Positions 1 through 3,000 of a DNA stretch of 3,411 nucleotides are shown here, piece after piece. This DNA comes from Bdellovibrionota bacterium (GTDB lineage: Bacteria; Bdellovibrionota_C; UBA2361; JBGSMV01). Each line of letters opens with the position of its first letter. The first letter of the stretch is position 1. The stretch is taken from contig JBIKWF010000207.1 in NCBI GenBank assembly GCA_044356455.1, positions 1 to 3,411 of the forward strand, written 5' to 3'. The position numbers are program-made.

Positions 1-3000
1 CATGATCTTTCAACCTGCCCCGTCGTTGCAGATCGAAGCAAATGAGCAAGGGAAGAAAGGTTTATCGGCACGCCGAGGCGCGCGTCGCGCCGTCGCCTAC
101 TGGTAGAAGAGGCGGAACGGCGCGCCCTACCGGGGGTGTTTAGCGCCAGCTTCGCCCCGATCAGAATTGCTTTTGACGACCTGTGCCTACTAAAAGATCT
201 TCAAGCGCGATGTCGAGGGCATCAGATAATTTAAAAACCGCGCCAATAGTCACATTCTGCTTTCCGTTTTCTACGGAGCTAATATACGCACGGTCCAGGC
301 CCGATCCATCGGCAAGATCCTGCTGGCTCATTTTTCTCAGTTTGCGTGCTTCAAGAATACGGGCGCCCATGCCGCGAAGATATTGATTGAGTGAGGCGTG
401 AGAGCCGAGGAGCCCGCAGATCTTGCGAGCCTCTTCTACTGCCTGCTTGGCGTCGTGTGCGACGGCGTCAGGCGAGAGTTGCTTAACAACTGACTCTGGC
501 GCTCGCTCAATGGCAGGCCCTCCGAGCATAATTTTGGGTGGTTTCTCTAGGCTCTTGAGCGCTCGCACTGCGCGCTCAAGTTCGGGTATGGTTTCTGTCA
601 GCGTGATCGAGAGACCTACTAAATTCACCCCGCGAGTTTTGACGAATTTCACCAGGTCTTCTGAGGGCGTGTTCGTGCCAAGAAAATCAACTTCCCACCC
701 ATCCATAAACAAGAAGTCGGCGACGACCTTGCCGCCCAGAAAGTGTGCATCTCCATCTATGGTTGCCACCACCGCTTTAAGTCCAAGAGAGGACTTCGGC
801 TGAATGATGTGCCTAAGCCTCGTCATTTCGCTAAGAGCGATTTGAGTTGCAAGGTGCTCTTCAGAGATAGAACTTTTGCCTGCATGCCAGAGCTCTCCCA
901 TTTCTAATTGCGCAGGGAGAAGTACCTTCAGGTAAATCTTCGATGGGCTAACCCCTTGGGCGAGAGCCTTATCAATCGCTTCAGAGGCGGCAAGAGCGCT
1001 TCCCGCCTTGAGGGCGTCTAAGTACTCATTGTACGCTTGGTCGATTGGGGTGAGATTCTGGGCGGTGTTCATAATATCCAATTCTAGCGCATTTTTTGAG
1101 GAGTAAGAATACACAGGTAGGCGATTTTTGTTTTATATAAAAGACATTGGGCTGCTTTTAAGGGAGCATGTCTTCTTAAACGACACAGGTATCGGTAGGC
1201 TCGGCACGCATGGCTCAGACAGATGTTATCATCATTGGCGCAGGCTTGGCGGGTCTTTGCTGCGCTCGGGAACTTGTACACCAGGGATTAAGCGTTTCTA
1301 TTCTTGAAGCTTCGAACGCCCCCGGTGGCAGGATTCGCACCGACCAGCATGAAGGTTTCTTGCTCGACCGGGCCTTCCAAGTTTTTCTCACTTCTTATCC
1401 AGAGGCCCAGAAAACCCTCGACTACCCATCCTTGCGATTACAGGAGTTCGATCCTGGGGCGCTTGTTTTTAGCCGAGGGAAATTCAGAAAAATTGGAGAT
1501 CCATTTCGCGATCCACTCTCGGTGCTTTCAACTCTTTTCTCTGGAGTGGGTACCACCCTCGATAAGTTACGGATTGCGCAGTTTCGGCAGCAAGTAATTA
1601 CGGGCTCCTTGGAAGCGCTTCGTGATGCTACTGAGACTACCTCGCTTCGGCGTCTCCAGAGTCTTGGGTTTAGCGAACGCATGCTTCGAGAATTTCTAAT
1701 CCCCTTCTTTCGAGGAGTTTTTTTCGAACCCGAGCTTTCAACGTCAAGTCGTAAGCTTGATTTCTGTTTTAGAATGTTTGCTCAAGGCGCCGCGGCACTT
1801 CCTGCGGAAGGGATGGAGGCAATTCCGCGCCAGATAGCCGATCGCCTGCCTCTCAAAAGTTTGCGCTGCGGTGTGCGGGTTTCGTCAATCGAAGAAGGCA
1901 CCGTAACTCTAGAAAGTGGAGAGCAGCTACACGCTCCAATTGTGGTCCTCGCTACCGATGCTGAGAGTGCCGTCAAGCTTGAGGGGGGGCAGGAGTTTGG
2001 CGCTTCGCATGGCATCTACTGTCTCTATTTTGCAGCGCCGCAAAGTCCCCTTGGAGAGCCTCTTCTCGTTCTGAATGGAACGGGGGCGGGGATTGTGAAC
2101 AACCTTTCCGTGGTAACCGATATCGCTCCGTCCTATGGCCCACGTGACCAAGCCTTGATATCCGTGAGTGTTCTTCCAGGTTTTGTCGAGAGAAGTGCAG
2201 GGCTTGAGCTCCGAGTCTTAGAGGAGCTTGAGGGGTGGTTCGGCTCGCAAGTGAACTCGTGGCGTCACCTTAGGACTTACCACGTGCGTAATGCACTTCC
2301 TGTTCAAGCGACTCTTCCTCCTTCATCTGCGACAAAGCCGCTGGTTTTGAAAGACTGGCTTTTCCGTTGTGGTGACTATTTGGAAATAGCCTCCATTCAA
2401 GGTGCAATGAAGTCGGGGAGACGAGCCGCGGAAGAAATTCTCGCGCGGCATGGGTAAGGCCCCAGCTTCTCTTTTCGTGTTTTAGGGAACAACCACTAAG
2501 ACCACAGAGACCACTAAGGGTGGGAGATTGTTTTTTCTCTCCTTCTTACGCAATGGATTTAATTTGTGATTTTTGCTGAAAGCGCGCCTCTTTTTCTGGT
2601 ACATGTCCTTCTGACATGGTTCATGGTCGGACTTATCTGGACCATTCAAGTCGTGCATTATCCTTTGATGGGCGAAGTTGGGCCGGAAAGATTTTCTAAG
2701 TATTCAGAGCTTCATAATCAGAAGATTACATGGATTGTAGGTCCAGTGATGCTGCTTGAGGCTGGCACGGGAGCTTTACTTTTCTTCTTGGGCGAGAGTC
2801 GCAGCTACTTTCTGCTTTCATTGGTGATGCTTGCGATCGTGTGGGCTTCAACAGCCTTTGTCCAAGTGCCCTTGCACACGCAGCTAGGCAAGGGGTTCTC
2901 ATCTTCGGTACATAGCGCGCTCGTTCGGACGAACTGGATTCGAACTTTTGCATGGAGCCTGAGAGGCGTGCTGCTTGGCATTCTTCTACTTGATTAGAAA

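Follow-up and report, generated by a model that had tools for sequence, protein, structure and literature searches.

The locus and its neighbours

The window, that is, the whole 3,411-bp stretch of DNA that was analysed, carries a regulator gene divergent from a flavoprotein gene, with predicted operator sites in the intergenic region and repeats at both ends:

1..133, no strand: copy of a genome-wide REP-like palindromic repeat, outside the system
161..1072, (-): regulator gene, B12 photosensor module plus C-terminal XRE HTH (303-aa translation, Pfam, AlphaFold2)
194..358, (-): XRE/Cro HTH, aa 239-293, nearest to C.AhdI, C.BclI and C.Esp1396I (Pfam, comparison with RM controller proteins)
278..295, (-): recognition helix D260-R261-A262-Y263-I264-S265 (alignment)
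428..778, (-): Rossmann B12-binding domain, aa 99-215, with G107-D108-x-H110-x2-G113, G132-x3-P136, S155 and G184-G185 (Pfam, alignment)
833..1030, (-): four-helix-bundle cap, B12-binding_2, aa 15-80 (Pfam)
854..889, (-): W62-H63-x8-E72-H73, the motif that contacts adenosyl in CarH (translation, alignment, a passage of PMC9304148)
1097..1115, no strand: imperfect second operator site, longer by one base and separated from the first by 13 bp (sub-threshold as a full site; matches the canonical second site of L102/L103 in the alignment)
1129..1146, no strand: predicted operator TGTTTTATATAAAAGACA (TGT-N12-ACA; no intergenic sequence of the 4.7-Mb genome matches better, and the two closest loci have their site at the aligned position)
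1169..1185, no strand: possible third imperfect palindrome, TGT-N11-ACA, by the flavoprotein start (weak; half-site score only, not kept in L102/L103)
1210..2457, (+): FAD oxidoreductase of the Amino_oxidase family, 415 aa, probable direct target (Pfam; same divergent layout in L103, L027, L030, L053 and L104)
2566..2997, (+): small hydrophobic protein of about 143 aa with an uncertain start, probably co-transcribed (no Pfam/NCBIfam family; also 3' of the flavoprotein in L103, G023 and G005)
2998..3382, no strand: cluster of REP-like palindromic repeats of the same kind as 1..133, outside the system

The 303-aa regulator is matched in Pfam by B12-binding_2 (aa 15-80, 4.3e-13), B12-binding (aa 99-215, 1.9e-20) and HTH_3 (aa 239-293, 1.6e-14), which confirms the three-domain layout given in the first-pass annotation, and its AlphaFold2 model has a mean pLDDT of 91.6. 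An alternative in-frame GTG at 1114 would extend the protein to 317 aa and overlap the second operator site, while the ATG at 1072 lines up with the start codon in the two closest loci.

The divergent gene had been described as encoding a phytoene-desaturase-like flavoprotein. It is an Amino_oxidase flavoprotein, but the likeness to phytoene desaturase was not borne out, since it scores 44 bits against crtI_fam (cut-off 238), over residues 6-55 only; its PDB matches are limited to the N-terminal FAD motif. No match to the phytoene synthase family (SQS_PSY) was found in the host genome, which is 93% complete, nor any crtB/crtI match by tblastn, and a carotenoid regulon in the host was rejected on these grounds. 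The host genome does carry a PduO-type adenosyltransferase and methylmalonyl-CoA mutases.

A predicted B12 photosensor module joined to a controller-type HTH

Both of the CarH signatures previously noted are present, W62-x9-E72-H73 and D108-x-H110-x-x-G113; their counterparts in the alignment with Thermus CarH are its W-H, EH and E-R-H; the position of H63 corresponds to the light-state upper His ligand of CarH, as given in a passage of PMC9304148. The four motifs that the text of SignatureFinder lists for light-responsive cobalamin-binding domains (GxxW, EH, GxxH and GxxxP; PMC11796333) all occur in the regulator, as G59-W62, E72-H73, G107-H110 and G132-P136, and the set is complete in 78 of 102 family rows. 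W62, E72, H73 and H110 are conserved in 99 of 102 locus proteins and in 118 of the 141 full-length representatives at 50% identity, and W-x9-EH together with G-x2-H-x2-G is matched by 117 of 120 homologues among those listed.

The top Foldseek matches of the regulator model are, without exception, B12 photoreceptors. The apo homodimer model scores 0.58, against 0.05 for the best control; of the reference cases, 20 of 30 solved pairs reach the mark used, as does 1 of 23 single chains. The runs share at least 97% of their contacts, with pLDDT of at least 84. In the modelled interface the cap packs head-to-tail on the Rossmann domain, an arrangement that, like the score, may stem from likeness to CarH structures, and the HTH domains have no confident mutual contact.

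The references for CarH and class I LitR were Thermus thermophilus CarH (PDB 5C8D-5C8F), the Myxococcus and Bacillus CarH proteins and CtMerR (PDB 8JBS). With these the regulator shares the four-helix cap plus Rossmann B12 module, Wx9EH, D/ExHxxG...S...GG and the W-H pair, and also the modelled head-to-tail dimer, a predicted autoregulated divergent promoter and, in several lineages, putative photoprotective targets. In contrast to CarH, which has an N-terminal MerR domain, the regulator has no MerR match and ends in an XRE HTH; it reaches 73.5 bits against the CarH family profile NF052513 (cut-off 400), over the B12 part only, the Arg-Asp dimer-interface pair of CarH is replaced by A109 and N134, and no carotenoid synthase was found in the host. 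The best sequence and structure matches of the B12 module are instead the photocobilins SasPcob (PDB 8J2W/8J2X) and AbDPcob (PDB 8J2Y) (E 2e-20; Foldseek rank 1-3), of which SasPcob also carries the module at its N-terminus. The photocobilins, however, bind biliverdin through a globin domain and lack a DNA-binding domain, while the C-terminal part of the regulator is an XRE HTH. The automatic MtbC1 label, which would make the regulator a carbon-transfer corrinoid protein of the methanogen type (MtbC/MtaC), was ruled out by family scores and gene context: MtbC (54 bits, cut-off 350) and MtgC (56 bits, cut-off 370) remain below threshold, and no corrinoid methyltransferase occurs among the recurring neighbours of the family loci.

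The best PDB matches of the HTH are the restriction-modification controller proteins C.Esp1396I, C.AhdI and C.BclI, with which it has the D-R-x-Y-I-S recognition helix in common. In C.Esp1396I, R35 reads TG, and D34, Y37, N47 and T49 compress the central TATA (PMC3488213); in the family, R261 is kept in 140 and N273 in all 141 of the full-length 50% representatives. The controllers differ in being stand-alone proteins of 70-80 aa without a sensor, which bind as adjacent dimers to a 35-bp operator and control restriction genes, whereas the regulator is a 303-aa fusion; R46 of the controllers is Gln in the regulator, and the GAC/GTC box is relaxed. The window contains no RM gene, and none recurs as a direct neighbour across the family loci. 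The regulator is a separate fusion of a B12 module and an XRE HTH rather than a permuted CarH, as had been proposed, because the B12 module scores higher against SasPcob (2e-20) than against CarH (3e-14) and the HTH is of the controller-protein type. It is probably a variant of the known bacterial B12 photoreceptor type, joined to a different DNA-binding domain.

That a large family shares this architecture was upheld: 263 proteins match at E<=1e-3, and PF02607+PF02310+PF01381 occurs in all 120 of the matches listed. Clustered at 50% identity, the family's full-length members form at least 141 groups, and they come from at least six phyla; its tree was built by a quick method with weak deep branches, and for this reason we make no claim on transfer. 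No study of the B12-module/XRE fusion family was found in the openly accessible literature searched. A "new class" is nevertheless too strong a term, since the text of SignatureFinder already describes, in general terms, that light-responsive B12 domains occur with HTH or further output domains attached at either end (PMC11796333).

The predicted operator and its distribution

The promoters of the family have in common an 18-bp palindrome, TGT-N12-ACA, with a TATA-like core. It is the top-ranked spaced palindrome, found in 27 of 64 regions against 2.8 in shuffled sequence, and paired sites at a spacing of 31-32 bp occur in 32 of the 64 (0.06 shuffled), or in 9 of 45 and 6 of 19 regions, against 0.04, when the motif was trained across phyla. 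At least two sites were present in 13 of 14 held-out loci, against 0.095. Two marine clades differ, with spacings of 28-30 bp in one and 22 bp in the other, so that a rigid tetramer ruler is not universal. The scan scored non-overlapping sites, that is, spacings of 22 bp and above, and did not model a hidden 11-bp repeat separately; the motif search returned the 18-bp palindrome with its 31-32 bp period and not the tandem 11-bp direct repeats (TnnACA) of the CarH type. Many upstream regions have -10-like hexamers within or between the sites, as judged by eye, and a sigma-70 consensus scan of the window's intergenic region gave no match.

The predicted operator fits the DNA contacts of the controller proteins: the OM site of C.Esp1396I, as derived from base numbers in PMC3488213, has the same TG-N14-CA geometry in a TG...TATA...CA palindrome. 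It differs from CarH operators, which are tandem 11-bp direct repeats, in being made up of inverted 18-bp palindromes about 31 bp apart. The same TGT-N12-ACA formula, also in pairs and with a B12-based light input, is known for CrtJ/PpsR with AerR in purple bacteria, but that system consists of two proteins with an unrelated HTH and sites typically 8 bp apart (PMC9144470), and the likeness is best read as convergence. As binders of the window site, PpsR/CrtJ and a MerR-type CarH were both rejected, with no PpsR above cut-off and no second CarH-type protein found in the host genome.

Photolyase, fasciclin, folE or crtB genes lie behind the operator in several lineages, and genes of these types are light- or singlet-oxygen-induced in other systems (PMC7074977, PMC9758184, PMC11417400). 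Pairs away from the regulator promoter lie upstream of a RudS-class II photolyase and DUF2878 in L038 and of a DUF378...photolyase operon in L059/L066, and two of four genome-wide matches in Uabimicrobium have fasciclin genes behind them; single sites are found ahead of crtB-crtI in L118 and ahead of photolyase in L141. Photolyase, furan/cyclopropane fatty acid genes, folE, fasciclin and RudS are also targets of the class II LitR (PplR/PmlR) and RpoE-ChrR regulons, which differ in their DNA-binding domains and in their sensors (a LOV partner, and singlet oxygen via an anti-sigma factor).

A photo-stress marker gene, on a list that includes weak markers, lies within 8 kb of the regulator in only 20 of 80 genome loci, and in 0 of 28 loci of the largest clade. 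A tandem-pattern scan of 19 large-clade genomes gave matches at the regulator promoter except for six, none of them with photo-stress genes, and the controls also gave six; of a further 28 genomes 11 were matched, nine of them at no place but the regulator promoter, one at three promoters (L038) and one at control level. A wider regulon was not recovered in this way. The strict palindromic pattern had matches in only 6 of 30 genomes. In the host genome operator sites are missing at the photolyase, the furan-fatty-acid-type cluster and the TIGR01777 gene. In the host's order photolyase was not supported as a target, with an operator within 300 bp of the best photolyase at 1 of 30 regulator-positive and 1 of 21 regulator-negative loci, and neither was the flavoprotein as an in-trans target, its promoter lacking the site in all six regulator-positive genomes where it is non-adjacent. 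The host-order photolyase result, the lack of a phytoene synthase match in the host genome and the photolyase-free cobT/cobS clade described below count against a uniform light regulon across the family.

A putative light-released repressor and its alternatives

We consider it likely that the regulator is an AdoCbl-dependent, light-released local repressor. In the dark, AdoCbl would be held between the four-helix cap and the Rossmann domain of the single chain, with H110 as lower ligand and W62, E72 and H73 on the adenosyl group, and would drive the formation of CarH-like head-to-tail dimers and probably tetramers. The oligomer would pair the C-terminal XRE domains, which may then bind the 18-bp TG(T)-N12-(A)CA palindromes in the manner of controller proteins, with R261 on TG and Y263 and N273 on the backbone of the TATA-like core. 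As the two palindromes lie about three helical turns apart, one oligomer could cover the divergent promoter and repress both directions until light splits the Co-C bond, upon which the oligomer would dissociate and transcription begin. In the host the putative targets are the regulator itself, the divergent flavoprotein and the small membrane protein; in other lineages photolyases, fasciclin, folE, furan-fatty-acid-type genes and crtB-crtI would be among them. The domains, the conserved motifs, the operator with its spacing and the gene context were established by computation; that the chain binds AdoCbl, is photolysed, forms such oligomers, represses and is itself the protein on the operator is what we infer. 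Points that weigh against this reading are the scarcity of photo-stress markers near the regulator, the lack of sites at the host's photolyase and at non-adjacent flavoprotein genes, the photolyase-free Dehalococcoidia genomes, the imperfect second site in the window, the unconserved Arg-Asp pair, the variable site spacing and the want of confident HTH contacts in the dimer model. An AdoCbl-dependent, light-controlled regulator with an XRE output, the core of the first-pass annotation, is well supported by sequence, model and context, while the permutation, the carotenoid neighbour and the novelty of the class were overstated.

A sensor of cobalamin availability acting mainly in the dark, in which the holo form represses, the apo form releases, genes come on at B12 scarcity and light sensitivity is incidental or lost, seems quite improbable. 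Sensing of B12 in the dark had been raised as a caveat, and it finds some support, confined to one Dehalococcoidia clade: 9 of the 80 loci, all from Dehalococcoidia/Chloroflexi, have cobT and/or cobS in the same orientation 60-270 bp 3' of the regulator, and the 8 of these that were scanned gave no cobalamin riboswitch; PF00875 photolyase is found in none of 20 genomes from two Dehalococcoidia sister clades which retain the regulator; and G132W (16 of 102 rows), at the modelled dimer interface, is a trait of this clade. Apo-CarH is also a poor operator binder (PMC8156234), so that B12 dependence is built into the mechanism. Yet the adenosyl-side motif and H63 are retained, in the cobT/cobS clade too, light-specific genes such as photolyases lie behind operators in other lineages, and the host has neither a cobT/cobS/cobU match nor a B12 gene in the regulator's module. 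Combining the two, a single family could include a B12 photorepressor that reads DNA in a new way (an oligomer with two controller-type XRE dimers on palindromes three turns apart) as well as a G132W-retuned B12-supply sensor that controls cobT/cobS without a riboswitch in photolyase-lacking Dehalococcoidia, which we regard as rather unlikely.

The overlap of neighbour genes with the singlet-oxygen RpoE and class II LitR regulons, and the missing Arg-Asp pair, would also suit an indirect photo-oxidative stress regulator, whose B12 module binds a non-adenosyl cobalamin or serves for dimerisation and whose release comes through a partner or oxidation, as in CarA-CarS or class II LitR with its short LOV protein. 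This is very unlikely: the Trp of Wx9EH is absent from CarA and the Rossmann half from class II LitR, whereas the regulator has both, and no conserved partner gene recurs over the 80 loci. There is likewise a slim chance of a light- and B12-controlled activator or dual activator/repressor, as controller proteins activate with one dimer and repress with two (PMC3488213), the HTH is nearest to these and, of the sites at the window promoter, one is strong and the other imperfect. However, the -10-like hexamers seen inside or between sites fit occlusion, photoprotective targets would be expected on once the AdoCbl oligomer is destroyed, and the 31-32 bp period far exceeds the adjacent-dimer layout of the 35-bp controller operator.

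The B12 photorepressors in the literature covered use a MerR domain on direct repeats throughout. If the regulator is indeed a light-released repressor, it would show that a B12 switch is able to work through a second DNA-binding geometry, with a small XRE domain on a short, predictable palindrome, and the family would provide a compact repressor-operator pair for green light that is orthogonal to CarH; the surprise is moderate, since B12 photosensor domains are already known to be reused as modules. The predicted operator makes the family directly testable, and the family may also supply a light regulator to marine Dehalococcoidia (SAR202), in which light inhibits the members in culture (PMC10444878).

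A B12 module joined to a controller-type HTH domain

The regulator gene encodes a protein that the first-pass annotation had described as a CarH-type B12 module followed by an XRE-type HTH, and all three Pfam domains were recovered (B12-binding_2, aa 15–80; B12-binding, aa 99–215; HTH_3, aa 239–293). No NCBIfam model reached its cut-off, the CarH model scoring 73.5 against the 400 needed. The AlphaFold2 model (54-row alignment) has a mean pLDDT of 91.6, and the Foldseek matches listed for it are photocobilins, CtMerR and Thermus CarH. The reading as a permuted CarH does not hold: since the B12 module is nearer in sequence to the photocobilin SasPcob (2e-20) than to CarH (3e-14), and the HTH is closest to the restriction-modification controller proteins C.AhdI, C.BclI and C.Esp1396I, the regulator is, judged by sequence, a fusion in its own right, of a B12 module of photosensor type with an XRE domain of controller type. 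It is placed outside the CarH family, and a CarH-like action would be by analogy.

A word-index protein search with the regulator returned 263 proteins, and the 120 listed all contain the three domains; a profile search gave at least 141 full-length proteins among the 150 representatives (50% identity) listed. GTDB contigs yielded 141 regulator loci, the best 80 of which were kept, with record titles from Bdellovibrionota, delta proteobacteria, Dehalococcoidia, Fimbriimonadales, Planctomycetota (including Ca. Uabimicrobium amorphum), Bipolaricaulia and Fraserbacteria. The Dehalococcoidia and marine metagenome loci we take to be SAR202. When 40 relatives were searched, 15 gave a strong match (an internal stop interrupts one of these, and another is truncated), but the four genomes of the host's own family gave none; neither regulator nor flavoprotein was found in its four closest relatives. 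Among 102 locus-derived proteins (after removal of ten duplicate or self rows and of proteins below 260 aa), W62, E72, H73 and H110 are jointly kept in 99, position 63, the light-state His ligand of CarH, is His in 79, and the complete set of four SignatureFinder motifs, also carried by the window protein, is present in 78. By its domain content, a separate ESM Atlas cluster (69 members, mostly Bacillota; score 0.81) likewise has HTH_3 together with the two B12 domains. Locus L123 (7584–8639) encodes a photocobilin-type protein, in which a B12 module is joined to a globin/phycobilisome-like domain, followed by a HisKA_2 kinase.

The family is real and conserved, and apparently uncharacterised. 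No study of a fusion of a CarH-type B12 module with XRE was found in the literature searched, which excluded subscription reviews. According to the available part of P2TF, 2 of 37 proteobacterial B12-domain transcription factors lack MerR, and no B12–XRE fusion is described there. PMC11796333 states that light-responsive B12 domains can carry an HTH or another output domain at either terminus, and a CBD-HTH cluster may figure in its Fig. 9 or Fig. S9; HTH fusions are thus generically known from that text, and the B12 photosensor–XRE fusion is new as a variant.

The predicted operator

The motif was first spotted by eye in 92 upstream regions, dereplicated to 64. TGT-N12-ACA ranks first of all spaced trinucleotide palindromes (27 of 64 regions; 2.8 when shuffled), with the refined consensus TGTTGnATATATnCAACA. 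Half of the regions (32 of 64; 0.06 shuffled) contain a pair of sites with a period of 31 or 32 bp, scored with a matrix trained on these same regions; for this reason training was repeated across phyla, which gave pairs in 9/45 and 6/19 regions against 0.04. At least two sites, spaced 28–33 bp, were found in 13 of 14 held-out metagenome loci (0.095 shuffled), this set being what was left of 28 after removal of four near-duplicates, three loci that lacked upstream DNA and seven hits that were partial or outside the family. No site is present in two loci whose related B12 module comes without an HTH. The following features lie in the window:

161–1072, minus strand: regulator ORF, 303 aa (translation and Pfam)
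1129–1146: predicted operator site, the only intergenic one of five scoring at least 14 in 4.7 Mb
1097–1115: imperfect second site, 13 bp from 1129–1146; in the alignment it falls where the two closest loci have their canonical second site

With its own region out of training, 1129–1146 ties fifth genome-wide, and the sites ahead of it or level with it are inside ORFs.

In C.Esp1396I (PMC3488213) the outer TG is read by R35 and the central TATA is compressed by D34, Y37, N47, T49 and S52; base numbers imply TG-N14-CA for its OM site. R261, the Arg predicted to read TG here, is kept in 140 and N273 in 141 of 141 family proteins (listed full-length 50% representatives), whereas the R46 position is here mostly Gln. 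It is mainly because recognition helix and motif agree that we infer the regulator to be the protein binding the predicted operator. As alternative binders, PpsR and MerR-type CarH were searched for in the host genome, and neither was found.

The flavoprotein is divergent in the same position in five other loci (L103, L027, L030, L053 and L104). It had been called phytoene-desaturase-like; by score it is no CrtI, and a search of the host genome for phytoene synthase found none. The host photolyase, TIGR01777 gene and DUF1295–CMAS–oxidoreductase–DUF1365 cluster are located elsewhere, without operator sites. This cluster (HAD–MFS–DUF1295–CMAS–oxidoreductase–DUF1365; host contig C203, 1–6009, minus strand) resembles RSP_1089–1091/cfaS and is presumably of furan-fatty-acid type. 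Palindromic repeats, which we take to be REP-like, bracket the three-gene module at 1–133 and 2998–3382; the window ends are inverted copies of each other (82% over 119 nt), and blastn with both gave 474 matches across 75 contigs.

Proposed light release and possible dark B12 sensing

The homodimer model of the regulator scored 0.58 (best control, 0.05), with runs agreeing in at least 97% of contacts and pLDDT of at least 84. It passes a mark that 20 of 30 solved pairs also pass, as does 1 of 23 single chains. The pass may reflect likeness, because the interface, cap against Rossmann domain, matches that of CarH; the HTHs lie outside the confident interface. A dimer of such cap–Rossmann dimers would present an XRE pair at either end, with about 105 Å between the two for 31 bp, and spacings of 28–30 and 22 bp argue for a flexible arrangement. 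Disassembly would be driven by light, by analogy with CarH and CtMerR as presented in PMC11796333 and PMC9304148. Since its genome encodes a PduO-type adenosyltransferase, as well as methylmalonyl-CoA mutases and MetH, the host could probably make AdoCbl from imported B12; CobA/BtuR was not found in its genome.

In one Dehalococcoidia clade the regulator may instead sense B12 in the dark, given its linkage to cob genes, the lack of PF00875 matches and G132W. In 9 of the best 80 of 141 loci, cobT and/or cobS lie downstream on the same strand; no cobalamin riboswitch was found in the eight of these scanned, nor PF00875 photolyase in 20 of 20 genomes, of unstated completeness, of the cob clade and its sister. 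Residue 132, which contacts the partner's H73 in the dimer model, is Trp in 16 of 102 rows, 14 of them in the cob-linked clade. In nine loci (L043, L054, L055, L064, L067, L071, L072, L076 and L079) cobT, cobS and cobU are directly behind the regulator, near 8900–12300, and two ERG4/ERG24 sterol-reductase-family genes are upstream.

Candidate targets across lineages

In favour of a role in light stress, tandem sites precede RudS and a class II photolyase, and also a DUF2878 operon, in L038, and a DUF378...photolyase–DUF2867 operon in L059 and L066. In the marine loci L108–L119, fasciclin and folE belong to the divergent operon, to which L116 adds heliorhodopsin and L119 photolyase; in L118 one single site lies ahead of crtB–crtI. 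In Uabimicrobium, 2 of 4 matches of a blind pattern search precede fasciclin-like genes, recognised by sequence likeness to Pfam-positive ones (control matches, 2). In Rhodobacter sphaeroides the RpoE regulon for singlet oxygen includes photolyase, cfaS, RSP_1090/91, fasciclin and folE2 (PMC7074977), and phrB, ufaM, folE and RudS respond to light under the control of class II LitR by induction (PMC9758184, PMC11417400).

Against a light regulon, a photo-stress marker is present in just 20 of the best 80 of 141 loci, and none of the 28 loci of the largest clade has one. In that clade the gene divergent from the regulator (L020, 6670–7707, and 24 other loci) encodes a DnaJ-domain membrane protein whose hydrophobic segments are C-terminal, and the shared promoter has three operator sites. 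To our knowledge this protein has no tie to light. Among Chloroflexota-type and Bipolaricaulia loci, the operator-linked neighbour that recurs most constantly is a gene for a small DUF378 membrane protein (L055, 7652–7936; 37 loci). In L027 (12004–14121) and L104 (8174–10294) the operon behind the regulator encodes a single protein of 706 aa in which DUF1365 is fused to a methyltransferase of cyclopropane-synthase type. A protein of 394–411 aa without Pfam or NCBIfam match is encoded behind tandem operator sites in L063 (10605–11789) and L078 (8980–10215), and its gene is immediately 5' of photolyase in L059, L063 and L066.

In the host's order, photolyase promoters carry a site in 1 of 30 regulator-positive against 1 of 21 regulator-negative cases, these kin not being independent, and the flavoprotein has no operator site in 6 of 6 cases away from the regulator. 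Genome-wide operator pattern searches mostly recover the regulator's own promoter alone. From the sparse markers, the site-less photolyase and flavoprotein promoters and the genome-wide patterns, we conclude that the regulator is mainly local and its targets lineage-specific. Its best mechanism is probably that of an AdoCbl-dependent local repressor released by light.
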